In this document: piece by piece, positions 5,056 to 23,480 of the stretch | How positions within the stretch are numbered: position 1 is the stretch's first letter | Layout: each line of letters opens with the position of its first letter | DNA from: an uncultured Candidatus Saccharibacteria bacterium | GTDB lineage: Bacteria > Patescibacteriota > Saccharimonadia > CAILAD01 > GCA-016700035 | Reading direction: 5' to 3' | Assembly: GCA_964583675.1 (NCBI GenBank) | Contig: CAZOVH010000002.1 | Span: forward strand, 71,548-135,547 | Length of the DNA stretch: 64,000 nt | Translations under genes and position numbers: made by a program | The notes under the pieces: model-generated | Told to the model about the DNA's origin: nothing | Seen by the model: only the letters and a program-made list of their open reading frames with translations | The model's database searches: none

Positions 5056-5296
5056 GGTGTTAGTTCGCTTTCTTCTTAAAACAAAGGCTGGCAAGCGGAT
5101 TGGTTTCCAGGTATCTGGACCTAATCACTTCCCAGAAATATTTAGTCAACGAGAGATAGTTTATCAGGTTTACACCAGATATGTCAAGAAGAAACACTGA
5201 TTATTTCACACTCAAGCGAATAAGCATTGACAAAACCTTTTTTTTATTGCTATATTTGGAGTCGCATTTGTACCTACAACTCGAGGATTGTACACC

Positions 5297-5707
5297 ATGC
5301 CCGACGAAACTCTCCCTATCGACTTCAGGTTTGCCGTCAATATCGGCCGCGTGAACGGTTACCCAGTGCAGGTCCGCTACTTCGTTCGCAAGCCTCATGA
5401 CATCGGTGCTCTCTCCAAGACAGTGGACCTTCAGCACCAGAATCCTCGCCTACGCAGCATGGTGGAGGAGAGCATCAAGCAGCGATACGGCACAGACACC
5501 CAGCCACTTCGCGTTTCTGCGCAGAACCGACGAGGATTGGAGATGACTATCGAGCAGGACATCCCGCGTCACTTCTCCATCATCATGCTCACCGACGAGG
5601 ATGATAGCCGCATCGTTGAAGCTGTCAGGGTCTTGATGACGGCTATCACGCCCAGCCTGGATGCGGCCGAGATGCTCGAGCTCACCCAAACCATACCGCT
5701 TTCATAG
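5297..5707 (+). CDS. hypothetical acidic protein (high GC), inserted antisense between rpsJ and rplC
   Basis: ATG at 5297 sits 9 nt after a GAGGA RBS; a TTGACA-18-TATATT promoter lies at about 5228-5262; GC roughly 57% against about 48% in flanking ribosomal genes; no recognisable domain. Confidence 0.5.
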   Translation: MPDETLPIDFRFAVNIGRVNGYPVQVRYFVRKPHDIGALSKTVDLQHQNPRLRSMVEESIKQRYGTDTQPLRVSAQNRRGLEMTIEQDIPRHFSIIMLTDEDDSRIVEAVRVLMTAITPSLDAAEMLELTQTIPLS

Positions 5708-5799: not shown

Positions 5800-6117
5800 C
5801 TACATTTTGATTTCGATATCGACGCCAGCTGGCAAAGATAGATTCATAAGCGAGTCAATAGTCTTTGGAGTTGGCTCGGTGATGTCGATAAGCCGCTTGT
5901 GCGTTCGCATCTCGAAAGCCTCGTGGCTGTCCTTAAAGATGTGAGGACTACGGATGACAGTGGTGGTGTGCCGATCGGTTGGCAACGGAACTGGACCAGC
6001 AACCTGGGCACCAGTGCGGATTGCGGTGTCGATAATTTGCTTTGTCGACTGATCAATCACCTTATTGTCATAGGCTTTGAGTCGGATGCGGATGCGTTGA
6101 GCGGTTTTTTCTACCAT
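5800..6117 (-). CDS. rpsJ: 30S ribosomal protein S10
   Basis: 105 aa; [17 protein letters not shown]... S10. Confidence 0.95.
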
Positions 6118-6126
6118 AGTGTTGCT

Positions 6127-7332
6127 TTACTTAGTAATCTTCGTTACAACACCAGCGCCAACGGTACGCCCACCTTCGCGAATCGCAAAGCGGAGACCTT
6201 CATCCATGGCAATAGGAGCGAGGAGCTTAACCGAACAGTTGATGTTATCACCTGGCATTACCATCTTAGTACCTTCTGGAAGCTTCACTTCACCAGTAAC
6301 ATCGGTGGTACGGAAGTAGAACTGTGGCTTGTAGCCGTCTACGAAAGGAGTGTGGCGTCCGCCTTCATCCTTAGTAAGTACGTATACTTCAGCTTCAAAC
6401 TCAGTGTGAGGAGTGATTGAACCTGGCTTAGAGATAACCTGACCACGCTCAATCTGGGTGCGCTCAATACCACGAAGCAAGAGACCAACGTTATCACCAG
6501 CCTGACCTTCGTTCAGCATCTTGCGGAACATTTCTACACCGGTAACAACTGTCTTTTGATTGTCTTTAATACCAACAATCTCAACTTCTTCGTTAACGTT
6601 TACCTTACCTTGCTCAATACGACCGGTGGCAACAGTACCACGACCTTTAATGGAGAATACGTCTTCGATTGGCATAAGGAATGGCTTATCAAGTTCGCGC
6701 TCTGGCTGTGGAAGGTACTCATCCATAGCCTTAACGAGCTCCATGATTGAGTCTTCGGCAGCTGCATCACCTTCGAGAGCCTTAAGCGCCGAACCCTTAA
6801 CGATTGGGCAGTCAGCGTCGAATTCGTTCTTTTCGAGAAGTTCACGAATTTCAACTTCTACGAGCTCTGCAAGCTCTGGGTCGGCCTGATCCATTTTGTT
6901 CATGTATACGAGAATCTTTGGAACACCAACCTGACGAGCCAAGAGAACGTGCTCGCGGGTCTGAGGCATTGGACCGTCAGCAGCAGAAACCACCAAGATA
7001 GCGCCGTCAACCTGGGCAGCGCCGGTGATCATGTTTTTAACATAGTCAGCGTGACCTGGCATATCGACGTGTGCGTAGTGACGGTTCTCCGATTCATACT
7101 CCTGGTGGGAGGTAGCAATGGTAATACCACGCTCTCGCTCTTCTGGGGCCTTATCGATTTCGTCGTAAGCAACTGATTTGTTTACGTCTGATGGTAGTTT
7201 CTTTGCAAGTACAGCAGTAATTGCTGCTGTAAGAGTGGTCTTACCATGGTCAACGTGACCCATGGTACCAACGTTAATGTGCGGTTTGTCGCGCTTAAAT
7301 TCTGCAGCCACGAACTTCTCCTTTGTATACAA
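6127..7332 (-). CDS. tuf: elongation factor Tu
   Basis: 401 aa; [33 protein letters not shown] GTPase motifs. Confidence 0.97.
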
Positions 7333-7468: not shown

Positions 7469-7972
7469 TCACTCACCATTTTCAAACTCATCGAAAATAG
7501 CCACTTCTTCGACTCGACCGTGACTATTAAGGATCCATGCATCCTCAATACGAGCCTGCCCGTAACTCGCCACCCAGATGCGTACTCCATAAAAAGCCAG
7601 CCAGCGTGAGATGAGAACAGCCGGACCCAAGGTAGCCAGCGCAATAACCATGAATTCGCGGTAGGTATACTCGTCGACATAGTCCAGCTGCACAATGAAC
7701 ATGCCAAGAACAACAATACTGGCCATCACACCAGCGATCGGAATCAGAATCACTTCATCGAATTCTTTCTGAAACCCGGAGAAATCTCCATCGATAAAGC
7801 GCTGCCACTTCCACTTCTCAAGGCGAGGACCAAGCGCCCGCTCACGGCGTCGTGCTGCCTTCACCTGATCGTGAAACTTTCGATCGAACTCATGCTGTTC
7901 TGCATCAGTATCCACACGACTTGGATAGATACTGAAGAGCCTCATCATCTCAAAGTTTTCCCAAGGAAACAC
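7469..7972 (-). CDS. hypothetical membrane protein inserted between fusA and tuf
   Basis: 167 aa with two predicted TM helices; GTG start 4-5 nt after AGGAGG; TTGAAA-18-TATAGT promoter overlapping the fusA terminator; own terminator hairpin CGTCTCGAG-N5-CTCGAGACG at 7437-7459. Confidence 0.45.
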   Translation of the reverse strand: MFPWENFEMMRLFSIYPSRVDTDAEQHEFDRKFHDQVKAARRRERALGPRLEKWKWQRFIDGDFSGFQKEFDEVILIPIAGVMASIVVLGMFIVQLDYVDEYTYREFMVIALATLGPAVLISRWLAFYGVRIWVASYGQARIEDAWILNSHGRVEEVAIFDEFENGE

Positions 7973-8066: not shown

Positions 8067-10172
8067 TTACTCAGATTTTGCGGCGGCACTCTTGCCGATA
8101 AGCTCCTCCGCAATATTGTGTGGAACTTCGGCGTAGTGGTCAAATTCCATCGAGTAACTGGCTCGACCCTGAGTCATAGAACGAACAGTTGTGGCATAAC
8201 CAAACATTTCGGAAAGCGGAACAAAGCCGTCGATAATTTTTGCACCCAAACGATCTTCCATCTTTTCGATGCGACCGCGCTTAGAGTTCATATCACCCAC
8301 TACGTCACCCATGAATTCTTCAGGAGTCGTTACTTCAACTTTCATAACAGGCTCGAGAATGACTGGGTCGGCCTTCCGCACACCTTCTTGTAATGCCATC
8401 GATCCAGCGATCTTGAAAGCCATTTCTGACGAGTCAACTTCGTGGTATGAGCCGTCATACAACTTAGCTTTTACGTCAACTACCGGGTAACCAGCAAGCA
8501 CACCATTGCCCATGGCTTCTTTAATGCCTTCATCGACCGGCTTAATGTATTCACGAGGAACTACACCGCCAACAATGGCATTTTCAAACTCGTAGGTTGG
8601 CTTATCACCTTCAATGTCCTCAGCATGCACGAGCGGACTCACTTCAATCCAAACGTGTCCGTACTGACCGCGACCACCAGATTGGCGTACAAACTTTCCT
8701 TCTACCTGAACCGTCTTACGGATAGTCTCACGATATGCAACTTGCGGACGACCGACATTTGCCTCTACCTTAAATTCTCGCTTCATACGATCAACAAGCA
8801 CTTCGAGGTGAAGCTCACCCATTCCAGAGATGAGAGTCTGTCCAGCTTCGTTATCGGAGCTCACGCGGAAAGTCGGATCTTCTTCCGCCAGACGCGAGAG
8901 CGCCAATGACATCTTTTCTTGGTCGGCCTTAGTCTTTGGCTCTACAGCAATCTGAATAACTGGCTCAGGGAACGTAATTTGTTCGAGGATTACCGCATGT
9001 CCAACCTCACACAAGGTGTGACCAGTCATAGTGTTCTTAAGACCAACTGCTGCAGCAATTTCACCGGCATACACCTCCTGCACTTCTTCACGCTGATTAG
9101 CATGCATACGCAAGATACGACCGATACGCTCTTTTTCTCCCGTTGAGCTATTGAGAACATACGAACCACTCTTAAGAGTCCCAGCATAAATGCGGAAGAA
9201 GCAGAGCTTACCTACAAATGGGTCTGTCGCAATCTTGAAAGCCAAACCAACGAATGGTACATCATCGGCAACCTTGAGCACTTCCTGTTCGCCAGTCTTG
9301 ACGTTGTCAGCTAGTGGAGCGGCAATATCAAGTGGAGTTGGTAAGTAGTCTACAACAATATCCAAAAGCTTCTCGACGATTACGCCGCGGCCATCACCAC
9401 CGGATACGATGAAGAATTCACCCGAGAGTACGCTCTTACGAATGCAAGACTTAATCTCATCTTCGCTAAGCTCAGTACCTTCGAGGTATTTTTCCATAAT
9501 CGCGTCATCAGCTTCCACAGCAGCTTCAATGAGGTGTTGACGGTAGCGCTCGGCTTTTTCCTTCATATCTTCAGGAATTTCACCTTCAACCAGCTCTTTG
9601 TCCTTATATTCGGTATAGGTGTAAGCCTTCATGGCAATCAGGTCAACAATGCCATTGATAGACTGCTCTTCGCCAATTGGCAGGTGGATTGGATAGGCTC
9701 GCTTGGTTAGACGAGCATGAATTGACTCAAGGCTCTTATAAAAATCTCCACCAGTCTGATTGATCTTATTGATAAAACAAATGCGAGGCACGCCATACTT
9801 GTTAGCCTGGCGCCATACAGTTTCAGACTGTGGCTCTACACCCATTTTACCGTCAAAAACCGTTACCGCTCCGTCGAGTACACGTAAAGAACGCTCAACT
9901 TCTACAGTAAAGTCGATGTGGCCAGGTGTATCAATAATATTAATGCGCTTACCATTCCAGAAGCAGGTGGTCGCAGCCGAAGTAATAGTAATTCCACGCT
10001 CGCGTTCCTGCTCCATCCAGTCCATGGTGGCTTCACCTTCGTGCACTTCACCAATCTTGTGAGTCTTACCCGTACGGTAAAGCACACCTTCAGTAACGGT
10101 CGTTTTACCAGCATCGATGTGAGCAATAATACCAATGTTACGTGTGTTTTCGAGAGAATATTCGCGAGCCAT
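8067..10172 (-). CDS. fusA: elongation factor G
   Basis: 701 aa; [17 protein letters not shown] GTPase motifs and EF-G domain order. Confidence 0.97.
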
Positions 10173-10285
10173 AAAAATCCTTATTTATCTATATTAGTGA
10201 TGAATAGCGCAAACCAAAAAAATAGCGCGTGGCGCGTATCAGATACATACTAGCATATAACCAACGCTCCGACAACTCTATAAGT

Positions 10286-10314
10286 GTTTGACAGACATGC
10301 CTTTTCCTCGTATA
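10286..10314 (+). promoter_or_regulatory. sigma70-type promoter TTGACA-17-TATAGT
   Basis: Perfect -35 with a 17-bp spacer, upstream of the 10360 ORF. Confidence 0.6.
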
Positions 10315-10359
10315 GTTAGCCGTTGAAATCGCACCTTCATTTCTGGAGAGGAATTCCCC

Positions 10360-11061
10360 ATGACCTCAGCAGTCCGCAAGTCGACACCAACCAAGCGAGT
10401 CAACCCCAAGATCCATTTCGAGACGAGCTCACGCCCCTCATCGGGCGCGATGAACCTCCTGGGCTGGGTCGCTGACAACCCACTGATTACCCACGTCTCT
10501 GTCGAAGCTGGGAAGCGTACCGCTCGGGCCGCTGGCCCAGTCAGGCTACGCATCATTGGCGGCACAGCGGATGCAGTGAAGATCACTATCTGCTGTGATG
10601 GCCTGCAGCATACTGCCAGGATGACGTATCAACGAGGAGAAACAAGATCAGTTCTCGAATATCTTCGCAAAACGTCAGCGCTAGAGTACGATCGGACTAC
10701 TCGACAGGATTTCTGCGCCTTCTGTGACAGCCTGCTGCCCGCTAACCACGGCGGAAACCGTAACCACCCCTGGCGTATCAGCAACTGCCATCGAATCTTC
10801 ATCAAGCCCGATGAACCGATGTGCGACAGCTGTCTTGATCGAGAACAAGAGTACGCCGCTGATGAGGATGGACCCACAGCTGAGGATAATGATTTCTCGC
10901 CTGAGGCAGCCTACCCGGGGCGAGCTCAATCAGCTGCTAATGCTCCGCGCATGACTTCCGAGGAATTCCAGGAGCAACTTCGTTCTGAAGTTGTGGCCGC
11001 TGCGGATCGCGAAGCCGCAAAGAAGCGCAAGCCCTGGTGGCGCCGACTTCGTAGCAAGTAA
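10360..11061 (+). CDS. hypothetical Cys/His-rich protein (high GC) with an HNH-like NCHR motif
   Basis: 233 aa; CAFCDSLL...NHGG...NCHRIF...CDSC; GGAG RBS; GC about 58-60%; strong terminator downstream. Confidence 0.5.
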   Translation: MTSAVRKSTPTKRVNPKIHFETSSRPSSGAMNLLGWVADNPLITHVSVEAGKRTARAAGPVRLRIIGGTADAVKITICCDGLQHTARMTYQRGETRSVLEYLRKTSALEYDRTTRQDFCAFCDSLLPANHGGNRNHPWRISNCHRIFIKPDEPMCDSCLDREQEYAADEDGPTAEDNDFSPEAAYPGRAQSAANAPRMTSEEFQEQLRSEVVAAADREAAKKRKPWWRRLRSK

Positions 11062-11066
11062 TCCCC

Positions 11067-11095
11067 GCCCCGACACATTGTCGGGGTTATTTTTT
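11067..11095. terminator. bidirectional terminator shared by convergent genes
   Basis: CCCCGACA-cat-TGTCGGGG then TTATTTTTT; preceded by AAAAAA on the opposite strand (ABC-F stop). Confidence 0.75.
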
Positions 11096-12745
11096 ACCAA
11101 CAAAACGCTCTTCGCCACCAATGTTCTTAGCAAAAAAGCTATCGTGCGAGATATAGAGAATTGCCCCTTCGTAGCGTTTTAAGGCATTTTCTAGCTCCTC
11201 AATAGAGGGCAAATCTAGATGGTTGGTTGGTTCATCGAGAATAAGCACGTTCGGACGCTGTGCAAACAGTGCAATTAGCTGAATTCTGGCTTTTTGACCA
11301 CCCGACAGCTGCTCAACTGGAATAGCACCATCGTGCCTTTCAAACAGATATTCTCGCAGAGTTTTTGCTATTGCCTCATCATTAACCGCCCTACCGGCTC
11401 GCGAATAAACATCGGCCACCGCTTCGGCGAGCGTCATGGTGAGATACCGAGCATCAATTTCTTGCTCATATCTACCCAACACCAAAGACGACGAACACTC
11501 AATGACACCAGCAAACACCGTACTCTCAAGAGCACCCCCTTTGGCAGTTGCCGTAATTGCATCCACAAGTGTTGTTTTTCCAGCACCATTACGACCCACA
11601 ATATGCACCCTCTCACCTGCGCGCAACTCAAAACCCATATCTGCAAACAATGGTTCGACGTAGCCCAAAGACAGCTCATCAATGCGAACAAGGCTCGCTG
11701 CGTTGCCAGCAACCGACTCGCGCGCACCACGTAAGTTAATTGATTTAGCCTTATATTTTTCGTATTGTTCACTTTGACCACGCTTCAAGCCCTGTACCGA
11801 CTCTTGATCAATCCAGATTGTTGGCTTAGAGATACGTTCTTCCAGCTCAGCAATTTCCCGTTGCAAACGGCGCACAAGTGGAATAAAGGGGTTGGGGCTT
11901 TGTTTTGTGCGAACTTTTTTTAGTTCAGCCTGCTTGAGGGCTTCCCGTCGATTTTCTAAGGTTTTTACATCAACCTCATACTGATGCATCGCGCTCGCTG
12001 AGCTGACAGTGTTCTGCTTGAGATAGGCTTCATAATTTCCTGGATAACTCTGCAATTTTTGATCTTTTAGCTCAAGTACCCTATCCGTACAGGCAAGCAC
12101 ATCTCGGTCGTGCGAGATAACCAATACAGCCGAGCGAACCTCTTTGAGCCAGGCCGTAAAACTAGCCTTCGCGACATAATCCATGTGGTTAGTTGGCTCA
12201 TCTAGAATTAACAGATCGGCGTTTGAATATTCAATTTGCACCAGTTGCGCAAAACGCTTTTGCCCACCGGAAAGATCACCAAACTTACCAGCGATCTGCC
12301 CTGTAGTAAGCTGATAGGCTTTGAGCGATTCAACCACCTGATCTTTCACATGATAATAGCCCAACTCATCATAGCGCTCGAGCGCATTAGTATATTCTTC
12401 GATGAGCTTCATATCATCACTCATCATATCCGGATAAGTGTCAATTATCTGGGTAAGACGAGTATAGTCGCGTAAGCCAGCCAAAACGTAATCCACAACC
12501 GATAGATCGGCATCTACCGAGTGCTGTTCCTGCTCGGTAGTAAGAATAACCACACCCTTGCGCAATCGAACCGAGCCGATATAATCAGCATCTTCTCCAG
12601 TAATAATTCGTGCAAGCGTAGACTTACCTACCCCATTGCGCCCGATAAATCCCACAACTTCACCAGCCTGGATTTGTAGCTCGGTATTTTTGAGAAGCAC
12701 GTTTGCGCCAGCTTGTTTCTCATCAATCTTGACTTCTAGTAACAT
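11087..12745 (-). CDS. ABC-F family ATPase (tandem ABC domains, no TM; ribosome-associated translation factor or ARE class)
   Basis: Two Walker A sites (GRNGVGKST, GRNGAGKTT), two LSGGQK signatures, two ILDEPTNHxD; ATG at 12745 preferred over the GTG-extended ORF; TTGCGC-17-TATACT promoter upstream. Confidence 0.85.
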   Translation of the reverse strand: MLLEVKIDEKQAGANVLLKNTELQIQAGEVVGFIGRNGVGKSTLARIITGEDADYIGSVRLRKGVVILTTEQEQHSVDADLSVVDYVLAGLRDYTRLTQIIDTYPDMMSDDMKLIEEYTNALERYDELGYYHVKDQVVESLKAYQLTTGQIAGKFGDLSGGQKRFAQLVQIEYSNADLLILDEPTNHMDYVAKASFTAWLKEVRSAVLVISHDRDVLACTDRVLELKDQKLQSYPGNYEAYLKQNTVSSASAMHQYEVDVKTLENRREALKQAELKKVRTKQSPNPFIPLVRRLQREIAELEERISKPTIWIDQESVQGLKRGQSEQYEKYKAKSINLRGARESVAGNAASLVRIDELSLGYVEPLFADMGFELRAGERVHIVGRNGAGKTTLVDAITATAKGGALESTVFAGVIECSSSLVLGRYEQEIDARYLTMTLAEAVADVYSRAGRAVNDEAIAKTLREYLFERHDGAIPVEQLSGGQKARIQLIALFAQRPNVLILDEPTNHLDLPSIEELENALKRYEGAILYISHDSFFAKNIGGEERFVGKK

Positions 12746-12822
12746 AGTTTTTCTAGTATATCTGTAAAGCATTATTTGCGCAAAAGAAATACGACCAGAA
12801 TATATCCTGGTCGTAAAATGCA

Positions 12823-13116
12823 CTACGGCTTATGAGCACCTCGCTGGCCAATCCTGGGAAGACTGGTGTCAACAACACCATGCGGTTGGCCGGCTGCGTC
12901 GTAGCACCTCTCGTGAAAGTGCTCAACTCGATTCCACTTGCCACGCTTGTAGACGTTGCAGATCACCTTCTTCAGCCGAACCCTTGCCTTAAAACGCAGT
13001 GGCTGATCGCAGTATTGGCACCTGGTGGTGTCACCAGGATCGATGTAGCGCAACACAGCCCGAGTACCAAGCTTTTTTGTCACCCGACTCGCGCCACCCC
13101 CATTCGCTCTTGCCAT
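12823..13116 (-). CDS. hypothetical small Zn-ribbon-like protein (elevated GC)
   Basis: 97 aa; CQYCDQPL...C...HFHERC; GGAGGG RBS; TTGACA-17-TAAAAT promoter; perfect 8-bp hairpin after its stop. Confidence 0.45.
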   Translation of the reverse strand: MARANGGGASRVTKKLGTRAVLRYIDPGDTTRCQYCDQPLRFKARVRLKKVICNVYKRGKWNRVEHFHERCYDAAGQPHGVVDTSLPRIGQRGAHKP

Positions 13117-13180
13117 AATCCCTCCGAAGGTACAGATTGAGTGGGCACATTTTAGTATGTAAGTACTGAGATGTCAATCA

Positions 13181-13888
13181 CTAGCGATAGTAGAGTTCTG
13201 CAAAGAAGCGGCCATCTTCAGGGTCTTCAAGTAAGCGCATAAGATCCGGCATACTTCGCATGTAATTTGAGTCCGTCCAATCCGGCTGCAGGTCACTCCA
13301 AAAAACTTCACCAGCGGCATGCGCTTCATAAAACTGATCCGTTTGGGCTGTACCGCGGAACATATGGAAGAAAATTTCGCTCACAGGTGCCCCATTTTCT
13401 TCAATTGTGACGTAGCCATCACCTACATGCTTGAGTTCACTTTTTAAGCCGGTCTTCTCAAATAGCTCACGATGAGCTGCCTCGTGCACCGTTTCGCCGA
13501 GATGGAGTTTACCGTATGGTAAACCAACTTGCCCCAAGAGCGGCTGTACTTTCCGCTTCATAAGTAGCCAGCGACCAAGACGATCACGGATAGCCAGCAA
13601 AATAACGATCTTGGGCTGCAAGCGTGGTTTGAGCGATTCCAGAGAAAGCGTATCAACGTAACGCTTGCCGTCTGCCGTGAGCGTATAATGCTTATCCGCT
13701 GTCTGCTCAACATAGCCTTCTTGCATGAGTGATTTTAAGTGGTAGGCAAAAAGATTGCTCTCTACGCCAGCAGGTTTGATATCTCGATAACGTAGAGAGT
13801 CTCCACGCATTAAGTTGCGCAATATAGTTCGTTGAATGTGGTGCATCATACCTTCAAGTATACCATGCCTCAAATTGAGTTGAGTCAA
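13181..13888 (-). CDS. winged-helix DNA-binding domain fused to a NUDIX hydrolase domain
   Basis: N-terminal ArsR/MarR-like wHTH (IQRTILRNLMRGDSLRYRDI...); NUDIX box GKLHLGETVHEAAHRELFEKTGL (Gx5Ex7REUxExGU with one deviation); divergent from the 13967 operon. Confidence 0.6.
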   Translation of the reverse strand: MTQLNLRHGILEGMMHHIQRTILRNLMRGDSLRYRDIKPAGVESNLFAYHLKSLMQEGYVEQTADKHYTLTADGKRYVDTLSLESLKPRLQPKIVILLAIRDRLGRWLLMKRKVQPLLGQVGLPYGKLHLGETVHEAAHRELFEKTGLKSELKHVGDGYVTIEENGAPVSEIFFHMFRGTAQTDQFYEAHAAGEVFWSDLQPDWTDSNYMRSMPDLMRLLEDPEDGRFFAELYYR

Positions 13889-13966
13889 AAAGTCTGGCCT
13901 AGATTACACCTTCCAGCTGCGAGATAGTGAGGGTGTTCCCAGTACCTTGAGACTAAAGGAAAAACA

Positions 13967-14227
13967 ATGCCGGACGGGTACCACCTAGCTAGTTCAAAAA
14001 TCCGCAAAGGAGAGCTAGGAGAAATTTCAAAGATCCAGGAAGAACTCGATGAGCTCAGCGATGCTATGACTCAAGAATGTCGAATTATGGCACTCCTTGA
14101 GCTCTCGGACCTTGTCGGAACCATTGAGCTTTTTCTAGAGAAACATTTCTCTGATTTCACAATTGAAGATGTCCTCACAATGCAGCGCATTACCAAGCGA
14201 GCCTTTCAGAATGGAGCTAGAACATGA
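13967..14227 (+). CDS. small all-alpha protein, MazG/HisE-like NTP pyrophosphohydrolase fold (tentative)
   Basis: 86 aa with EELDELSDAM and ELSDLVGTIELFLEKH, which resemble MazG EExxE/ExxD metal-binding helices; AAAGGA RBS; ATGA overlap with the next gene. Confidence 0.35.
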   Translation: MPDGYHLASSKIRKGELGEISKIQEELDELSDAMTQECRIMALLELSDLVGTIELFLEKHFSDFTIEDVLTMQRITKRAFQNGART

Positions 14228-14847
14228 ACGAGTGGTACTTTGCACAGCCCGCAATTGACTATCGCCTACTGGCCGAAGCTATCGATTTCTACTCGCAACG
14301 TGGCTATACCTACATAGAAACGCCATGGGTTGTCGAACATCGGTACGCAAATGCCACCAAGCCGGCTGATCGGAGAGATTTCTTCTGTCTCGATGGCTAT
14401 CTCGTCGCCTCTGGCGAGCAAAGCTTTATGAGTGCTATGCATTCTGGCGAACTTCAGCCCGGAGGTAAATATCAAACCGTAACACCTTGCTTCCGCGATG
14501 AAGCTGTCGACAAGCTGCATCAAACGTGGTTCTTGAAACTCGAACTAATTTGGTACCGTCCGACTCTTCCTGTTCGTTACGGCACGGTATACGAAGTTAT
14601 GAACGACGCCAACACATTCATGAGTCGTTACATCAAGACGCAGCGCACGAGCCCGTGGGTTTTCGATGAAGACCCAACTTCCGAACATGGTGCCTACACC
14701 TATGATCTGGAATCAATTGACGGAATTGAGCTCGGTTCATATGGATATCGCCACCTGCTTAGCGAACACTGGATCTACGGGACTGGGCTAGCTCTACCTC
14801 GATTTACCATCGCGAAAAATACCCAACGCACAGGAGAAACAGCATGA
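14224..14847 (+). CDS. minimal class IIb aminoacyl-tRNA-synthetase catalytic-core paralog (EpmA/GenX/LysRS-like), 207 aa
   Basis: Motif 1 RGYTYIETPWV (compare EpmA RGVLEVETP); motif 2 TPCFRDEAVDKLHQTWFLKLELIWYRP (compare EpmA [23 protein letters not shown]); GIELGSYGY (compare GIELANGF); motif 3 GTGLALPRF; lacks the anticodon-binding domain and the about 100-aa insertion. Confidence 0.6.
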   Translation: MNEWYFAQPAIDYRLLAEAIDFYSQRGYTYIETPWVVEHRYANATKPADRRDFFCLDGYLVASGEQSFMSAMHSGELQPGGKYQTVTPCFRDEAVDKLHQTWFLKLELIWYRPTLPVRYGTVYEVMNDANTFMSRYIKTQRTSPWVFDEDPTSEHGAYTYDLESIDGIELGSYGYRHLLSEHWIYGTGLALPRFTIAKNTQRTGETA

Positions 14848-15068
14848 TGCACCACATTACCATTAAGGTTACGAGAGTCGATGGTGTTGGCTACGGTGGG
14901 TTTGGTACCCGTACCGACTACTATCTCACCTGCACGTGTGGCTTCTCGCGCTACGCAGACCCTATCGGTAAAAGAGACGCAACTGCACTCCATGCCACCC
15001 AACACCTCCTGGAGAGCATCATCGCTGAACTGGGTCTCGACTGCTCCATGAACCTCAGCTACCACTAA
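14844..15068 (+). CDS. hypothetical 74-aa Cys-containing protein, translationally coupled to the aaRS-like gene
   Basis: ATGATG overlapping the upstream stop; contains LTCTCGF and an ELGLDCS motif (ACP-like DSL with Cys); terminator follows. Confidence 0.4.
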   Translation: MMHHITIKVTRVDGVGYGGFGTRTDYYLTCTCGFSRYADPIGKRDATALHATQHLLESIIAELGLDCSMNLSYH

Positions 15069-15085
15069 CCCCTTAAACGAGTAAG

Positions 15086-15110
15086 CCCCTCGCTTGAGGG
15101 GTTTACTTTT
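15086..15110 (+). terminator. rho-independent terminator
   Basis: CCCCTC-gctt-GAGGGG then TTTACTTTT. Confidence 0.7.
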
Positions 15111-15163
15111 GGATATACATTGCGGTTAAGACCAGCTTATCTCGATGTGAAGCAAGGCAGACT

Positions 15164-15214
15164 AAAACCCATTTCGTAAGGCGTACTAGAACGTACGGTG
15201 TCGAAATGGGTTTT
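15164..15214. terminator. bidirectional terminator-like structure downstream of rpsG
   Basis: 13-bp perfect stem AAAACCCATTTCG/CGAAATGGGTTTT enclosing an inner CGTAC hairpin. Confidence 0.5.
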
Positions 15215-15255
15215 AAGTTTAACGCAGCTAAACGCGAGAGAGGCTGGTCGGATTA

Positions 15256-15732
15256 CTAGTACCGGGCAAAGTGCGCAAACGCCTTGTTAGCCTCAGCCAT
15301 CTGATGAGTATCAGCCTTCTTCTTGATGGCATCACCCTGGTTGTTGTAGGCATCCAAGAGTTCGTTTGCGAGACGCTTATCGAAGCTCTTACCTTCTTTG
15401 GCGCGAGCAGCATCCAAGATCCAAACCATTGCGTAATGAATGCGTCGATCTGGCTTCACTTCCATCGGCACCTGATAGTTTGCACCACCAACACGACGGG
15501 AACGAACCTGTACGTGTGGGCTGGCATTTTTAATAGCGCCTTCGAAGATTTCCATCGCGTCAGCTTTACCTTTTGTAGAAGCTTCTGTGAGAGCATCATA
15601 CACGAGGTTTTCGGCAAGACGCTTTTTACCGCTCTTCATCACCTTGTTAATCATGCGTGTTACAAGCACAGAGTTGTACTGCATGTCTGGAGCGAGTTCG
15701 CGCTTGAGGGATTTAGTCTTTTTTCGTGGCAT
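15256..15732 (-). CDS. rpsG: 30S ribosomal protein S7
   Basis: MPRKKTKSLKRELAPD... S7; start taken at the internal ATG next to the rpsL stop. Confidence 0.93.
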   Translation of the reverse strand: MPRKKTKSLKRELAPDMQYNSVLVTRMINKVMKSGKKRLAENLVYDALTEASTKGKADAMEIFEGAIKNASPHVQVRSRRVGGANYQVPMEVKPDRRIHYAMVWILDAARAKEGKSFDKRLANELLDAYNNQGDAIKKKADTHQMAEANKAFAHFARY

Positions 15733-15733
15733 A

Positions 15734-16156
15734 CTATTCTCCCTTCGCCTTCTCGAGCTTAGCGCCATACTTAGATCGGCCCTGCTTACGGTTGGCGACA
15801 CCGGCTGTGTCGAACGAACCACGCACTACGTGATAACGAACACCTGGAAGGTCTTTTACTCGACCACCGCGCACGAGCACTACTGAGTGCTCCTGCAGGT
15901 TGTGGCCAATTCCACCAATGTAGGCAGTTACTTCCATGCCGTTAGTGAGGCGCACACGGGCAACCTTACGGAGCGCTGAGTTTGGTTTCTTTGGAGTTTG
16001 GGTGAATACCTTGGTACACACACCGCGCTTCAAAGGTGCGTCCAATGGACGAACGCGACCTTTGAGAGCGTTGAGACTACGGCTCAAGGCTGGCGACTTA
16101 CTTTTGCGTCGAGCCTTGGCGCGTGGTTTGCGAATGAGTTGGTTAATCGTTGGCAT
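15734..16156 (-). CDS. rpsL: 30S ribosomal protein S12
   Basis: 140 aa; [10 protein letters not shown]...[11 protein letters not shown]12 signature. Confidence 0.95.
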
Positions 16157-16179: not shown

Positions 16180-19100
16180 TTACGCCTTCTGGTCAACCTG
16201 GTCATCGTCGTCTGTACGAAAACCGGTACCTACTGGGATCAATCGACCAATGATCACATTCTCTTTCAGGCCACGAAGCTTATCGACCTTACCGCGCAAA
16301 GCTGCTCCAATCAGCACCTTCATCGTCTCCTGGAAGGAAGCGGCAGAGAGCCAGCTATCAGATGAGATGGAGATCTTAGAGATTGGCATAAGCAGCTGCT
16401 CATAGGTTGCTGGTGTCTTCTTAGCTTCCTCGGCGGCACGATTAGCCTCCCACAGAGCTGTCTTGGAGATAACATCTCCAGCGATAAACTCAGTGTCATT
16501 TGGCTCTTCGATGCGTACGCGACTAAACATCTGACGAATGATCACTTCGATGTGCTTAGAAGCAATCGTCTGTCCCTGTGAAGCATAGATAGCCTGCACT
16601 TCGTCAACGATGTAGCGCTCTACAGCTTCGGCACCCAAGAGTCGGAGCATGTCCTGTAGGTTCACAGAACCTTCAGAGAGACGCTGACCAACAGTTACGA
16701 GGTCACCATTCTTCACCTTGAGGGTCACGTAATCAGGGAGTGTGTATTCCTTGATATTGCCACCTTCGTGGGTTAGCTCGATTCGACCTTTTGCAACCTT
16801 TACGGTTCCATCGGCACCCGCTTTAACGGTACGCTTACCAGTTTCGTTCTGGGCCAATACGTCACCCTTGGCTACTTCCGCGCCAGTCTTAACGGTCGGC
16901 TTCATGCCTTCCTTGAGGTCATATGGAGTGATCTTAAGATCAGCTGGGGCAATACGTAGTACTTGCTTACCTTCGGTAGCCTTAAGTGTAACCACACCAT
17001 CGATTTCAGCAAGGATCGCTTCACCACGTGGGTTACGGGCTTCAAAGATTTCCTCAACACGTGGGAGACCCTGCGTGATGTCGGCAGCCGAGGCTACACC
17101 ACCGGCGTGGAAGGTACGCATGGTGAGCTGTGTCCCTGGTTCACCGATAGACTGAGCGGCCATAATTCCCACGGCTTCACCGGTTTCTACCAAGTGACCA
17201 CGAGCAAGATCAGTACCATAACAGTGCTTACAAATTCCCCAAGCGAGGGTACATTTGAGGATCGAGCGAATGGTTACGGTTTCGATACCAGTATCGGTAA
17301 TTTCGCGAGCCATCTCATCGGTTACCAGCTCGCCGGCCTTCACGATTGTGCGGCGTCCATCTTTTACATCGGCAGCAACATAGCGACCAACAATCCATGG
17401 AGCTAAGCTATCCTGACCAGCAGCCTGAGCTTCTGAGAGGTGTACCTTATAGCCTTCCTTATCGCCACAGTCGTCGGCAGCAATCATCACGTCCTGTGCC
17501 ACATCTACGAGACGACGAGTGAGATATCCCGATTCTGCAGTCTTGAGGGCTGTGTCGGTAAGACCCTTACGAGCACCGTGTGAGGAGATGAAGTATTCGA
17601 GGATCGAAAGACCTTCTTTATAGTTGCTCTTCACCGGAAGCTCGATAGTTCCACCAGTCGAGTTGAGCACCAAGCCCTTCATGCCGGCCATCTGGTTGGC
17701 CTGTCCAACGGTCGCACGAGCACCGCTTTCAATGTCCATCGCGAGGGTTGAGCTGTTTGGATTAAGCTCGGCTGTAAGTTCAGCTTCAATCTGTTCGCCA
17801 ACCTCTTTCCAAGTCTCAACAGTGCGCTCTTTACGCTCTTCGTTAGTGATCAGACCCTGCTGATACTGCGAGGTAATCGCCAAGGTTCGCTTTTCACCGT
17901 CATCGAGCAGTTGAGCTTTCTTCTTCGGAGTTTGGAGATCATCCATACCAAGCGAGAAGCCAGATTCGGTGGCAAACTGATAGCCAATCTCTTTAATGCG
18001 GTCGGCCACCTGAGCGGTTTCTTCACCACCAAAGCCCGTGAAGACTTTTGCGAGCACACCCTTAAGCTTCGACTTGGTCATAGCATCGTTCTGGAAGGAC
18101 ATACCTTCTGGAAGCACTTCGTTAAAGAGAATACGTCCAGCTGAACTTTCCAGCACTTCGCCCTGAATCTTTACACGAATTTTAGCGCGCAAGTGTACAG
18201 CTGCCTGCTGATACGCCATTATTGCTTCTTCTACCGAGGTAAATGCCTTGCCTTCACCCTTCGCACCATCGTCAAAACTGGTCATATAGAAACAGCCGAG
18301 TACGATTTCGTGTGATGGATTTACAATCGGCTCACCTGAAGATGGCTTCAAGAGGTTGCGGCTAGCAAGCATGATTTCGCGAGCTTCTTTCTGAGCAGCA
18401 TCCGAGAGTGGAACATGCACAGCCATCTGGTCACCATCGAAGTCGGCGTTAAAGGCCGCACACACCAATGGATGGAGCTGAATAGCCTTACCTTCGATCA
18501 ATACCGGCTTGAAAGCCTGGATAGAAAGTCGGTGCAAGGTCGGTGCGCGGTTGAGGAGCACATACTTACCAGTAATCACTTCTTCCAAAGTGTCCCACAC
18601 TTCTGTGCGAGCGCGTTCAATCATTCGAGCGGCGCTCTTTACGTTGTGGGCATACTCTTTTTCGATAAGCTTAGAGATAACAAATGGCTTGAAGAGCTCC
18701 AGTGCCATCATCTTTGGCAAACCACACTCGTCGAGTTTGAGGTGTGGACCAACTACGATTACCGAACGGCCCGAGTAGTCTACGCGCTTACCCAAGAGGT
18801 TCTGACGGAAGCGACCCTGCTTACCTTTGAGGAGGTCTGTAAGGCTCTTGAGCTTCTTGCGTGAACCACCAACGGCAGTAACAGCGCGCTCACGACGAGC
18901 ATTGTTGTCGATGAGAGCGTCGACAGCTTCTTGAAGCATACGCTTTTCGTTACGGCAAATTACCTCTGGAGCAGCCAAATCGTAGAGTTTTTTCAGACGA
19001 TTGTTGCGATTAATCACACGACGGTAGAGATCATTCAGGTCGGAAGCAGCAAAACGACCACCATCCAGCTGTACCATTGGGCGCAAGTCTGGTGGAATAA

Positions 19101-19977
19101 CCGGCAATTCAGAAATTACCATCCACTCTGGCTTAAGTCCGGCCTGCTGCATACCCTCTACGGCCTTGAGACGCTTCAAAGCCTTACGCTTACGCTGACC
19201 AGCTGTAGTTGCAGCCTCTTCACGCAATTCTTCGGCGAGCTTATCAAGCTCAACTTCTGAGAGGAGCTCACGAATGGCCTCAGCACCGATACCGGCCTTA
19301 AATACGTTGCCGTACTTAATGTTGAGTTCACGATACATACCTTCTGGCAAGAGCTGGTACTTAGCGAGTGCTTCAAGCTCATTTTTTGCAGTGAGATAGT
19401 TGGTTTCGAGATCAGCTAGCTCCTTAGCAGCTTCTTCTGTGAGATTCGACTCATCGGTAACTTCATGCTTGGTGATGATTTCTTTCTTGTAGCCCTGGTA
19501 GTCAGAGTTAAGATCAGTCAAAGCCTTTTCACGAGCTTCATCATCAACTGATTGCACGATGAAGTTTGCAAAGTAAGTTACACGTTCCAAGTCACGCACG
19601 CTCATATTAAGAAGCGTACCAATCGAGCTTGGGGTACCGCGCAGGAACCAAATGTGGCTCACTGGGACTGCCAAGTGGATGTGACCCATGCGCTCGCGTC
19701 GTACGATTGAACGAGTTACGAGTACGCCACACTTATCACAAACAATACCCTTGTAGCGAATACCTTTGTATTTACCACAGTAACACTGCCAGTCCTTGGT
19801 TGGCCCAAAGATCTTTTCGCAGAACAAGCCGTCTTTTTCTGGTTTTTGTGTGCGGTAGTTAATGGTTTCTGGCTTGGTAACTTCACCATGGCTCCAGTCC
19901 AAGATGTGCTCTGGGCTAGCCAGCGCCAACTTGATGGAAGTGAAGTCGATGGTTGGTTGGTTAAAGTCCTGTTGCAT
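16180..19977 (-). CDS. rpoC: DNA-directed RNA polymerase subunit beta'
   Basis: 1265 aa; Zn-binding [30 protein letters not shown] catalytic motif. Confidence 0.97.
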
Positions 19978-19979
19978 GA

Positions 19980-22900
19980 CTATACCTCCTCCTCTTTAGT
20001 TTCTGCTGGCGCTTCCTCGGCGAGTACTTCAAAGTCGTCAACGGCACCGTCTTCAGCAAGATCAACCACGGCGGTATCAGGGGCAGTACCCATCAACAAT
20101 TCATCGTCGGCTAAATCGACAGCTTCTTCGTTCACTTCTTTGTCGATTGCTTCATCAGCGTCAATTTCTACATGATTGTGTTCAAGCTCAACCGCGAGTC
20201 CGAGTGACTGCAACTCTTTTACAAGTACGTTGAAGCTTTCCGGAACACGAGGACCCTTAATCTCTTCAGACTTAATGATGGCCTCGTAAGCCTTCGAGCG
20301 ACCAATCACATCGTCAGACTTAATGGTGAGCACTTCTTGGAGGGTGTGAGCAGCACCGTAAGCTTCGAGCGCCCATACTTCCATCTCTCCAAAACGCTGA
20401 CCACCCATCATGGCCTTACCACCGAGTGGCTGCTGTGTAACCATCGCGTACGGTCCAGTGGATCGAGCGTGGATCTTGTCATCAACCATGTGGTGAAGCT
20501 TCAGCATGTATTTCACACCAATCGTGGTCTTTTGGTCGAATGGTTCACCCGAGAAGCCGTGGTAGAGCTGAGCCTTACCATCTTCTGGCAAACCAGCACG
20601 CTTGAGTTCAGACTTGATGGTTTCGATATCAACACCATCAAGAACTGGGCTAGCCACCTTGTAGCCAAGCGCCTGAGCAGCCCAACCAAGGTGAGTTTCC
20701 AAAATCTGTCCGATGTTCATACGAGCACCAATTCCGAGAGGATTCAAAACAATATCAACCGGAGTGCCGTCTTCGAGGTATGGCATATCTTCAACCGGCA
20801 TTACCTTCGAGATAACACCCTTGTTACCGTGACGACCGGCCATCTTGTCTCCAACCGAAATCTTACGGAGCTGAGCGACAGCAACATAAATCTGCTGAGT
20901 TACGCCACTTGGGAGGTCATCGCCGTTTTCTCCTGAGAGAATCTTAACGCCAACAATCTTACCAGAGCTACCGTTTGGCATGCGCAAGCTCGAGTCTTTC
21001 ACTTCGCGAGCCTTTTCACCAAAGATAGCGCGCAAGAGTCGCTCTTCGGAGCTGAGTTCGGTTTCACCCTTCGGGCTAATCTTTCCGACCAAAATATCTC
21101 CGGCGGTTACTTCGGCACCAATACGGACGATTCCGTCTTCATTGAGATCCTTGAGTGCTTCGTCACCAACATTTGGAATGTCGCGAGTTACGAGCTCTGG
21201 TCCAAGCTTAGTGTCACGTACATCAATCTGGAAGGTTTCAATGTGGATTGAGCTATAGCGATCATCCTGCACGAGACGTTCAGAAATGATAATCGCATCT
21301 TCGAAGTTGTGTCCGTCAAAACTCATGAAAGCTACAAGCACGTTCTGACCGAGAGCTAGCTCACCATCGATGGTAGACATTCCGTCAGCTAGTACGTCGC
21401 CCTTCTTCACCTTCTCGCCAGCCGTTACAGCACAGCGCTGAGTCATAGCTTCACCTTGGTTTGAGCGGATAAATGTCATCAGCTCGTAGGTCTTCGACTT
21501 ACCGTCTTTGTATTTTACGGTAATTGTTTTAGCAGTAGCGCTAGTGACTTCACCGTCGCCTTCCGCCAAAATTACCTGACCAGAGTCTTCAGCCACACGG
21601 CGCTCAACACCAGTACCAACCACAGGAGCTTGCGGTCGCACCAAAGCGACTGCCTGCTTTTGCATGTTTGCGCCCATCAAGGCACGACGAGCATCATCGT
21701 GTTCCATGAATGGAATAAGGGCCGCAGATACGCCAACGATTTGCTGTGAAGAAATATCAACGTAGTTTACATCATCAGCAGAAAGCTCGGCAGCTTCACC
21801 GCCTATGCCACGAGCCGAGAAAACACTCTCTGCAAAGTAGCCATCTTCCTGCACCTTGGTGTTTGCCGGAGCAATTACCGCACGCTCTTCATCAAAAGCG
21901 TCGAGATATACAACTTCCTTGGTAACGCGAGCCTTCACCGGTACGGCTTCTACACCAGCCTTATCAAGTTTTTTCGCAACAGCATCGGTAATTTTTTCAC
22001 CAGCTTTTACAAGTACAGTGCCCTTGCTGTCTTTCACCTGACGACGAGCAATTTCGCCTACAGCCTTAGTCGGAGCAGCTTCGTTTACTACCTTGAGGTA
22101 TGGAGTTTCAATAAAGCCATACTCATTCACTTTGGCGTAACTAGCCATAGTAGAAACCAAACCAATATTCGGTCCTTCTGGAGTTTCAATCGGGCAAATA
22201 CGGCCGTAGTGAGTACGGTGTACGTCACGCACTTCAAAGCCAGCACGTTCACGGTTCAAGCCACCAGGACCCATCGCGTTCAAGCGGCGCTTGTGCACAA
22301 TTTCATCAAGTGGGTTGGTCTGCTGTAAGAACTGTGAGAGTTGGTGCGAAGCAAAGAATTCCTTCACGCTTGCAACCACTGGGCGCACGTTAATCATGAG
22401 CGATGGAGTTACGTTTTCTGGGTCTGCAACCGACATACGGTCTTTTACAATGCGCTCCATACGAGCAATACCTATGCGGAAACGGGCCTGCATAAGCTCA
22501 CCTACCATCTTCAGACGGCGGTTACCCAAGTGATCGATGTCTTCAGAAGGAGCTCCTTCGTTGGTCATGCGGATCACTTCCTTGAGGATTGCAACAAAGT
22601 CCTCAACACGTAGTACACGATTTTCACGGGTATTTTTCACATTTACACCAAGTCGCTTGTTCATCTTGTAACGACCAACCTTCGAGAGGTCGTAACGCTT
22701 AAAGTCGAAGAACATTGAGTCAATCAAGCTCTTAGAGTTCTCAACCGTCGCCAAATCACCAGGCCGAATTCGCTTATATACTTCCATCAACGCTTCAGCA
22801 GTCGAGCTTGATGGATCTTTTGCGATAGTTTCTGAGATAAAGCGCACTTCGCCGTTATCTACATCGCTAAACAGTTCCAGAAGATCACTATCAGAACCGT

Positions 22901-23480
22901 AACCAAAAGCACGGAGCAAAGTGGTTACTGGAAGCTTACGCTTGCGGTCAATCTTTACGCTAATTACGCCATTGGCTGCAGTCTCAACCTCGAGCCATGC
23001 ACCACGGGAAGGAATAATCTTTGCTCCAAAGTAACCAGAGTTTGAGTCATTGGTGAAAAATACACCAGCAGAGCGCACAAGCTGAGAAACAACTACGCGC
23101 TCAACCCCATTGATGATGAACGTACCGCGGGCGGTCATAATTGGGTAGTCACCCAAGAAGATTTCCTGCTTACGAACTTCACCAGTTTCTTTAATTAAGA
23201 GCTCCATCTGAGCACGGAGGCTAGCTTCGTAGGTAGCGTTCTTTTCTTTAGCTTCAGCTTCTGTCAGCTTTGGTTGCTCGTAGTGATAGTCCTTAAAAGA
23301 AAGTTCGTAGAGCTTTCCAGTAAAGTCTTCAATCGGGCTAATTTCTTCAAAAAGTTCGGCGAGACCTTCGCGAACAAACCAGTCATAACTTGTGTGCTGA
23401 ATCTCAACGAGATTAGGCAATGGCAAGATATCGGTGTGGTCCTTGAGGTACACGCGCTTTGCAGCAGCTTGTTTTGGCAT
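19980..23480 (-). CDS. rpoB: DNA-directed RNA polymerase subunit beta
   Basis: 1166 aa; conserved beta-subunit blocks; directly upstream of rpoC. Confidence 0.97.

Follow-up and report, generated by a model that had tools for sequence, protein, structure and literature searches.

The translation gene cluster of the str type in an uncultured Candidatus Saccharibacteria bacterium (GenBank assembly GCA_964583675.1) is split. In the 64,000-nucleotide stretch that was analyzed (contig CAZOVH010000002.1, positions 71,548 to 135,547; hereafter the window, whose own numbering is used throughout), rpsL, rpsG, fusA, and tuf are found in canonical order on a single strand, and rpsG and fusA are 5083 bp apart, with seven open reading frames (ORFs) between them. 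We consider it likely, with a probability of roughly three in four, that one Saccharibacteria (TM7) clade has long passed on the gene order of this 5.1-kb stretch by vertical inheritance and that the stretch is not a recent insertion. An original prediction, made by a model from the sequence, had placed the end of rpsG at 15256 and the start of fusA at 10172, and these coordinates and the gene order proved correct; it had also spoken of six genes in the gap, but seven were counted, which is the sum of its own list as well. Reading from fusA toward rpsG, the seven genes encode a Cys/His protein, an ABC-F ATPase, a small zinc (Zn) protein, a winged helix-turn-helix (wHTH)-Nudix protein, and a plus-strand operon of orf86, an aminoacyl-tRNA synthetase-like (aaRS-like) gene, and orf74 (Table 1).

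Relatives were found by an EF-G protein search and contig look-ups, the EF-G scan of contigs giving only relatives of at most 71% identity; about 20 loci were sampled opportunistically, without a species tree. The closest EF-G matches are from Candidatus Saccharibacteria, at no more than 92% identity. The four siblings of the window (loci L140, L143, L144, and L145) carry the seven gap genes identical in content and order. L140 is collinear with window positions 9553 to 15354 at 85.6% DNA identity, and L143, L144, and L145 keep the gene order of the window all the way from rplC to rpoC, so that the Cys/His gene, the plus-strand trio, and the junction ORFs at fusA-tuf and rpsJ-rplC are shared too. 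Because the same order is present in at least five independent assemblies, an assembly artefact is excluded. Core genes are 94 to 100% identical between the window and its siblings, and accessory genes 82 to 88%. All seven gap genes are under purifying selection, with ratios of nonsynonymous to synonymous substitution (dN/dS) of 0.03 to 0.21 at a synonymous divergence (dS) of 0.35 to 1.6 from the sibling genomes; the low ratios mark the seven ORFs as real genes, and their shared order at such divergence points to long co-inheritance. The original prediction had read the stretch as an inserted island and proposed a synteny comparison with close relatives as the check; the identical order in all four siblings contradicts that reading.

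The same prediction held that rpsG and fusA are normally adjacent in bacteria, and this is borne out by the baseline of 71 non-Saccharibacterial loci collected via EF-G, in which the two genes are a median of 55 bp and at most 583 bp apart, with less than 200 bp between them in 68 loci. The two genes are also contiguous in the other Patescibacteria sampled, L001 and L004. The window shares with the canonical str operon (rpsL-rpsG-fusA-tufA, as in Escherichia coli and most bacteria) all four genes, their order, and their strand, as well as a position downstream of rpoB-rpoC and upstream of rpsJ-rplC. It differs in the 5083 bp that stand in place of the 55-bp median, in having a predicted terminator after rpsG and a separate predicted fusA promoter, and in being interrupted at fusA-tuf and rpsJ-rplC too. 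Conserved translation clusters have been broken elsewhere: in Rickettsia, tuf is reportedly detached from rpsL-rpsG-fusA (Syvanen et al. 1996), a case that likewise concerns an inherited break in a reduced-genome, host-associated lineage. The window differs in that rpsG and fusA are the genes parted from each other, that no gene of the cluster has moved away, and that a conserved block of three genes, together with exchangeable cargo, occupies the gap.

That block, which runs from the wHTH-Nudix gene through the Zn protein gene (where present) to the ABC-F gene and is co-directional with rpsG and fusA, is kept across a wider clade with EF-G identities of 86 to 93%; it is in the gap in L081/L083, L085/L086/L095, L087, L088, L089, L090, L091/L092, and L142. 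On either side of it is a slot whose content appears to be exchanged between lineages. Between rpsG and the Nudix gene, the window and its siblings carry the aaRS-like cassette, which here would consist of a MazG-like and minimal class II aaRS-like pair followed by a 74-amino-acid (aa) ORF; L142 has the cassette as well, L085 a reverse 169-aa ORF, L081 a reverse 167-aa ORF and a Bac_transf gene, and L089 and L090 nothing. Between ABC-F and fusA, the window and its siblings have the Cys/His gene, L081 and L142 a 120-aa ORF and a gene for a ClpB-like ATPase, and L085 nothing (not determined for L089 and L090). The gap of L084 (EF-G 90%) holds just the Zn protein gene and a Clp-like pair. At EF-G identities of 81 to 82%, L137 keeps the Nudix gene but not ABC-F and carries AAA_28, orf86-like, and aaRS-like genes as a reverse set, L138 has a thymidine kinase gene in the gap, and L139 has rpsG and fusA contiguous, 25 bp apart; in L007, a more distant Saccharibacterium, the gap contains a 472-aa ORF that by eye resembles a GH13 glycosidase. 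Judged by gene order, the gap is a mosaic of a clade-conserved core and two exchangeable slots, and rpsG-fusA, fusA-tuf, and rpsJ-rplC are recurrent variable sites in Saccharibacteria. The 120-aa ORF, of approximate length, overlaps the gene for the ClpB-like AAA+ ATPase of about 810 aa and forms with it a recurrent module adjoining fusA (L081 7086-9874, L084 6550-9365, L142 4157-6936), whose place in several relatives is that of the Cys/His gene in the window.

The signals between these genes suggest that the str cluster would be cut into separate units, with rpsL-rpsG ending at a terminator and fusA restarting from its own sigma-70-type promoter. An A-tract, a GC hairpin, and a U-tract follow rpsG in every split locus examined and are missing from the contiguous L139. 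Before fusA, the pattern TTGnnn, 17 to 18 nt, TG-n-TAnnnT was found in nine of nine split lineages, though the genes upstream differ, and with the rpsG terminator it upholds the original prediction that fusA needs a promoter of its own. This candidate promoter is followed, beginning about 12 nt past the -10 box, by a leader element also present in L140, L142, L143, L145, L081, L084, L085, and L089; it may act in attenuation or as a site for protein binding. For this leader, in which three GCGC blocks allow alternative pairings, no consensus fold was obtained with RNAalifold. The further claim that the gap genes, in both orientations, have promoter-like and terminator-like signals of their own was likewise supported. 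Hairpins with a U-tract, of differing sequence, occupy the equivalent place before ABC-F in L140, L087, L089, L090, and L085, and each of the eight relatives compared has a -10 box (TATACT, TAGACT, or TACACT) 9 to 11 nt ahead of the ABC-F start codon, which suggests that the ABC-F transcript is separate and near-leaderless. The region of the hairpin after orf74 has a 45-nt match (93%) directly after rpsG in L087. The weight that we give to these promoter and terminator calls comes from the conservation of the sites across relatives and not from a generic scan.

The ABC-F protein has two ABC domains joined by an interdomain linker of about 115 aa and no C-terminal extension (Pfam ABC_tran twice and ABC_tran_Xtn), two Walker A motifs, two LSGG signatures, two H-loops, and no transmembrane domain, and its orthologues in the same gap are 66 to 76% identical. 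ABC-F proteins are ribosome-binding factors, and two ABC domains, a helical linker, and the lack of a membrane domain are shared with the ABC-F translation factors (EttA, YheS, YbiT, and Uup; among the antibiotic resistance [ARE] types, VmlR/ExpZ, Msr, Vga, and Lsa). The window protein would be a ribosome-binding translation factor whose gene has its own terminator and promoter. It differs from these factors in reaching no NCBIfam ABC-F subfamily cut-off, in the position of its gene, in this clade, between rpsG and fusA, and in the CCHC zinc protein gene that precedes it in several relatives. The nearest solved structures are ExpZ, YheS, YbiT, Uup, and EttA; since the protein is about equally distant from the housekeeping (YheS, YbiT, Uup, and EttA) and ARE (ExpZ/VmlR) types and below every subfamily cut-off, we leave it without a subfamily call. 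The suggestion in the original prediction that ABC-F beside EF-G may be meaningful is weakly supported: the adjacency is clade conserved and makes a functional link with EF-G possible, but ABC-F has its own predicted terminator and promoter, and the gaps of L084, L137, L138, and L139 contain no ABC-F gene.

The wHTH-Nudix protein has a wHTH domain at its N terminus (residues 18 to 80, approximately; Pfam DUF7347 and HTH_27) and a Nudix domain at its C terminus (about 95 to 186; Pfam NUDIX, 4.8e-10), and its orthologues in the same position are 62 to 63% identical. The Nudix box reads G-X5-E-X7-RELFEKTGL and departs from the intact GX5EX7REUXEEXGU: almost every one of the 48 family members compared has Lys in place of the second Glu of the EE pair, and the box is more eroded in distant ones. 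By established Nudix enzymology, this change argues for a noncatalytic, ligand-binding domain. The nearest solved structures are ADP-ribose pyrophosphatases, and the Nudix-type regulator AraR (5bs6) was also matched. The wHTH-Nudix gene and orf86 are divergent, and the region separating them holds an operator-like palindrome, the sole site with at most one mismatch in the window; ACTCAA-N6-TTGAGT is present upstream of the wHTH-Nudix gene in most of ten loci, and a GACTCAA core is found no more than 110 nt upstream of the start in all ten, with 40-fold enrichment over the rest of the loci. The protein is most likely a ligand-sensing autoregulator that would bind this palindrome in its own promoter region, and, since the site is in a shared 120-bp divergent region, it may also control the orf86 operon. 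NrtR/AraR-type regulators similarly fuse a degenerate Nudix-fold domain to a winged-helix DNA-binding domain and have a palindromic site in the upstream region of their own gene (a predicted operator here). The window protein differs from the NrtR type in its reversed domain order, with the wHTH N-terminal and the Nudix domain C-terminal, and no NAD-metabolism genes were identified adjoining its gene in this window. Distant wHTH-Nudix homologues sit in other contexts, and none has an adjoining Zn protein gene. A perfect 15-nt inverted repeat (13835-13849 and 14844-14858) was also observed, such that the wHTH-Nudix gene and orf74 both start ATGATGCACCACATT (MMHHI); by a rough estimate, chance alone would yield about 0.03 matches of this kind in 5.6 kb.

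Between the wHTH-Nudix and ABC-F genes is the Zn protein gene (dN/dS, 0.07), which encodes a 97-aa member of an uncharacterized CCHC zinc protein family with 273 clusters at 50% identity (E ≤ 1e-3) and conserved residues C33, C36, H68, and C71. It matches no Pfam family, and a search of the PDB with its AlphaFold2 (AF2) model (predicted local distance difference test [pLDDT] score, 76) gave no fold match better than E 0.3. Among the loci compared, the family was seen only in Saccharibacterial str-gap loci. In L085 (7707-8138), and also in L086 and L095, a weak match to it (E 1e-4) is located between the Nudix and ABC-F genes where no gene is called, possibly a decaying copy. The core block would then comprise a regulator with a wHTH and a catalytically degenerate Nudix domain, this zinc protein, and the ABC-F protein, all encoded in the direction of the str genes.

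The first two genes of the plus-strand operon belong to protein families of large phages. The aaRS-like protein matches phrog_4806 (9e-40), with homologues in 276 phage records and 169 IMG/VR contigs, and orf86 matches phrog_6408 (4e-33), with homologues of at most 61% identity in 264 phage records; the two families occur in phages that include Stephanstirmvirinae and other large coliphages, Acinetobacter phages, Caulobacter phiCbK-like phages, Brevundimonas jumbo phages, and huge phages. Phages VEcB and CcrColossus, and at least 22 of 80 IMG/VR loci, have an orf86-like gene immediately ahead of the aaRS-like one, and one homologue sits in a jumbo-phage-like gene array. The window pair thus has the families, the order, and the few-base overlap of the PHROG 6408 and PHROG 4806 pair of large lytic and jumbo phages (annotated as "hypothetical protein" and "histidyl tRNA synthetase"); it differs in occupying a fixed chromosomal slot in a cellular genome, under purifying selection. 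In VEcB, the pair is located between helicase and ribonucleotide reductase genes and is directly followed by gp164 (L135 4828-5262), annotated as a "tRNA amidotransferase," whereas the third gene in the window is the unrelated orf74. This phage context hints that the pair might act on tRNA or nucleotides.

The AF2 model of the 207-aa aaRS-like protein (pLDDT, 90.4) is a bare class II catalytic core with no tRNA-binding domain, for which Foldseek returned the cores of PheRS-alpha, SerRS, and PylRS (TM-score, 0.6 to 0.7; 15 to 21% identity; E 4e-10). Motif 2 (FRDE, R91) and motif 3 (GTG..PR, R193) are invariant in 73 sequences, and on this model the protein is probably active as an adenylate-forming enzyme. 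It falls outside the canonical aaRS families (the tRNA-synt_2 score was 24.7, its cut-off being 25; the serS and genX matches were far below theirs), and a sequence search of the PDB gave no match. EpmA/PoxA, AsnA, HisZ, and the amino acid:carrier-protein ligases share a stand-alone class II core with intact ATP-binding motifs 2 and 3, but all are larger; a specific affinity to any of them was not found either (EpmA model, E 0.006; the top Foldseek matches were those given above). The partner of the enzyme, orf86, is a small, putatively all-alpha protein with an EExxExxD...ExxD signature, in which E25, E26, E29, D32, E45, and D48 are invariant in six sequences, a motif that we take to be of the MazG/all-alpha nucleoside triphosphate pyrophosphatase type; it had no Pfam or NCBIfam match, and a sequence search of the PDB gave noise only. 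An acyl or peptidyl carrier protein was considered and rejected, as the candidate Ser47 is Ala in the CcrColossus homologue and the acidic EExxE/ExxD pattern is invariant; without an invariant Ser, orf86 is not the carrier protein that would be found in an amino acid:carrier-protein ligase pair. The third gene, orf74, was found in the closest relatives only (88% identical in L140/L141; dN/dS, 0.08), and had no Pfam, NCBIfam, PHROG, or PADLOC match.

Among Saccharibacteria the pair is 61 to 85% identical, and to other versions it is at most 48% identical. A recent phage donor of the aaRS-like cassette was rejected, since the best copies among the 169 IMG/VR contigs and among cultured and huge phages are each 44% identical. 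Because the copies of the window group and L142 are monophyletic and in the same slot, and because no phage copy exceeds about 48%, the cassette is old in the lineage and not a recent transfer. The Cys/His protein (233 aa) in the other slot is an ORFan: it has no family match in the Pfam, NCBIfam, PHROG, and PADLOC libraries and falls into just 4 clusters in 5.8 billion proteins, 78 to 99% identical and all in the same slot. Its gene has a dN/dS of 0.14 to 0.21.

A 5-kb genomic island recently acquired by horizontal transfer between rpsG and fusA would account for the mixed orientations of the gap genes, the phage protein families in the plus-strand operon, the ORFan, and the junction content that varies by lineage, and two genes of 56 to 57% GC might be added to these. 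The original prediction was right that these two genes are high in GC (56.8% and 56.1%, compared with 48.8% for the window), but GC is not diagnostic of foreign origin here because much of the excess is at codon position 2, i.e., a matter of amino acid composition, because the Zn gene, one of the two, is clade conserved in place, and because rpsL (54.4%) and orf139 (56.4%), a small ORF at the rpsJ-rplC junction, are similarly high. An island is contradicted already at the level of the whole stretch by the identical seven-gene order in the four siblings, whose dS indicates long co-inheritance, and by the core block kept across the wider clade; none of the four closest relatives has an empty site, and slots differ only at greater distance. 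Hallmarks of mobility were not found either. No integrase, recombinase, or transposase family was found among the seven gap proteins (Pfam, NCBIfam, PHROGs, and PADLOC), and the PADLOC defence-system models gave merely generic ATPase and Nudix similarities; no tRNA or tmRNA gene flanks the gap, the sole tRNA of the window (30719-30803), which was also the only match in an Rfam scan of it, being 15 kb off; and no flanking direct repeats were found beyond short ones at chance level. With the best phage aaRS-like copies just 33 to 48% identical, we regard a recent island as highly improbable.

Two further explanations accept an old gene order and differ from ours on how it works. If read-through joined the wHTH-Nudix, Zn protein, and ABC-F genes to rpsL-rpsG and fusA in one transcript, the three would extend the str operon as a dosage-coupled translation module, and it is consistent with this that the three genes share the direction of rpsG and fusA and remain between them across the clade, that the Nudix gene of L089 and L090 begins about 180 bp after rpsG, that the ABC-F strand shows no U-tract at the hairpin downstream of ABC-F, and that ABC-F proteins bind ribosomes, as is established and as the nearest solved structures agree. 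We nevertheless think such an operon unlikely, given the canonical terminator after rpsG in all split loci, the terminator and then a -10 box before ABC-F, the conserved promoter of fusA, the oppositely oriented genes that flank the core on both sides in the window, and the four loci with no ABC-F in the gap. Alternatively, the ABC-F protein could be an ARE-type ribosome-protection factor induced by attenuation, in which stalling near the end of the Zn ORF would mask the terminator 7 nt downstream. Its best NCBIfam model is indeed NF000355 ("ribosomal protection-like ABC-F"), its nearest solved structure is ExpZ, its linker is longer than the roughly 80 aa of EttA, and a conserved terminator is located directly upstream of its gene; in addition, cultivated Saccharibacteria live on Actinobacteria. 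However, NF000355 scored 334.5 bits against a family cut-off of 380, the specific ARE models (Vga, Msr, Lsa, Sal, OptrA, etc.) scored 115 to 222 bits, far below cut-offs of 680 to 1450, and the housekeeping YheS, YbiT, Uup, and EttA score almost the same as ExpZ. L081, L088, and L142 have no Zn gene and only weak hairpins at this place. Because all relatives keep a -10 box downstream of the hairpin and ahead of the ATG, we downgraded the attenuator reading; the end of an upstream unit followed by a separate promoter is simpler, and resistance by attenuation seems very unlikely to us.

Several observations weigh against long-standing vertical inheritance in separately transcribed units, which we still prefer. 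L084 (EF-G 90%) has neither the Nudix nor the ABC-F gene, whereas the more distant L085 (86%) has both, and on this opportunistic sample the core could be either ancestral with losses or repeatedly gained. The aaRS-like copy of L137 does not group with that of the window and, on sequence grounds, may have been captured independently in this slot. When the window is compared with L143, the plus-strand cassette (13967-15068 and 11607-12708, respectively) has a dS of 0.80 to 1.58 compared with 0.45 for fusA, and the Zn and Cys/His genes of the same pair have dS values of 0.38 and 0.35; the high value could reflect replacement by a diverged allele or weaker constraint on codon usage. As to transcription, some read-through toward fusA is possible because of the missing U-tract on the ABC-F strand, and the total of a generic promoter scan is at chance level, the signals described here being based on patterns and conservation.

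TABLE 1 Genes and predicted signals of the split str cluster and its surroundings, in window coordinates
Feature	Position	Strand	Basis or remark
rpoB	19980-23480	-	ORF
rpoC	16180-19977	-	ORF
rpsL (ribosomal protein S12)	15734-16156	-	ORF; 92-96% identity to same-position relatives
rpsG (ribosomal protein S7)	15256-15729	-	Pfam Ribosomal_S7, 2e-57
Terminator-type hairpin downstream of rpsG	15163-15215	symmetrical on both strands	14-bp perfect inverted repeat TAAAACCCATTTCG / CGAAATGGGTTTTA
Terminator-like hairpin after orf74, GCCCCTC-GCTT-GAGGGGT then TTACTTTT	15085-15110	+	Sequence reading
orf74	14844-15068	+	
aaRS-like gene, 207 aa	14224-14847	+	
orf86	13967-14227	+	
Operator-like palindrome ACTCAA-N6-TTGAG, divergent wHTH-Nudix/orf86 region	13868-13885	.	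Motif search
wHTH-Nudix gene	13181-13846	-	Start taken at conserved MHHIQR
Promoter-like TTGACA-17-TAAAAT (11/12), upstream of Zn protein gene	13149-13177	-	Consensus match only
Zn protein gene, 97 aa	12823-13116	-	
Intrinsic-terminator hairpin, 11-bp stem, UAUA loop, UUUCUUUU tail	12782-12815	-	Starts 7 nt past Zn protein stop
ABC-F promoter candidate TTGCGC-17-TATACT	12755-12783	-	-10 box ends 9 nt before ATG
ABC-F gene, 552 aa	11087-12745	-	
Hairpin GCCCCGACA-CAT-TGTCGGGGT between convergent Cys/His gene and ABC-F	11067-11087	+	T-tract on + strand only
Cys/His protein gene, 233 aa	10360-11061	+	
Promoter-like TTGACA-17-TATAGT (11/12), upstream of Cys/His gene	10288-10316	+	Consensus match only
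Predicted fusA promoter: -35 TTGTCG, 17-nt spacer, TGc-extended -10 TAGTAT	10247-10275	-	
fusA leader element: GCGC-n3-GCGC, run of 5-7 U, then CGTTTGCGC	10201-10235	-	Alignment conservation
fusA (EF-G)	8067-10172	-	TIGR00484, 1096 bits
167-aa ORF at fusA-tuf junction	7469-7972	-	
tuf	6127-7332	-	
rpsJ	5800-6117	-	
139-aa ORF (orf139), antisense, at rpsJ-rplC junction	5288-5707	+	Very high GC at codon position 3 (0.72)

The likely start of rpsG is the ATG at 15729, inside a longer ORF that begins with GTG; its relatives all encode 157 to 158 aa. Beyond orf139, the next gene in window order is rplC, on the minus strand. The 167-aa ORF at the fusA-tuf junction has no family match, has a dN/dS of 0.09 relative to L143, and is 21% identical (E 6e-8) to a 154-aa ORF at the counterpart position in L081; L085 has four genes at this junction instead, including those for Ferric_reduct and DUF1775 proteins. 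ORFs of 136 to 140 aa were observed in the position and orientation of orf139 in L081, L085, L143, and L145, the one in L081 having no detectable sequence similarity to orf139 of the window. The rpsJ-rplC junction of L139 (13880-20665) spans 6.8 kb and holds about ten genes, including those for a reverse transcriptase (RVT_1), a His_Phos_1 protein, and a RarA/MgsA-like ATPase. The tRNA of the window is a tRNA-Leu on the minus strand; it lies within the 3' portion of a plus-strand ORF of 553 aa (29188-30849) that probably extends too far at its end.

A literature search found no published description of ABC-F or the str operon in Saccharibacteria, of ABCF proteins in the candidate phyla radiation, or of phage aaRS-like/MazG pairs, and as far as the literature was searched, the arrangement is a previously undescribed, lineage-specific variant of a well-known operon. 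Lineage-specific rearrangements that break the str operon are already known, so the headline is an ordinary one. The three variable junctions of the str/S10 supercluster are useful for annotation, for synteny-based checks of binning, and for the study of gene uptake by reduced episymbiont genomes, and the conserved promoter and leader of fusA offer a candidate cis-regulatory element for EF-G expression. The wHTH-pseudo-Nudix, CCHC, and ABC-F trio brings a translation-factor gene together with candidates for a regulator and an operator, in a group of organisms whose regulation is hardly characterized. It is conceivable, though we find it doubtful, that the core block is a ligand-controlled module for translation control or ribosome protection fixed within the translation cluster of one clade of episymbiotic Saccharibacteria, with rpsG-fusA as a recurrent landing pad for cargo, and that the MazG-like and aaRS-like pair might make or destroy a nucleotide signal sensed by the pseudo-Nudix regulator; if so, Saccharibacteria would have at this junction an uncharacterized two-enzyme system that hundreds of large and jumbo phages also carry. 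The PHROG 6408/4806 pair, which has no known function in the approximately 270 sequenced phages that carry it, is here fixed and under selection in a bacterial chromosome, and this provides a second context in which to study it.

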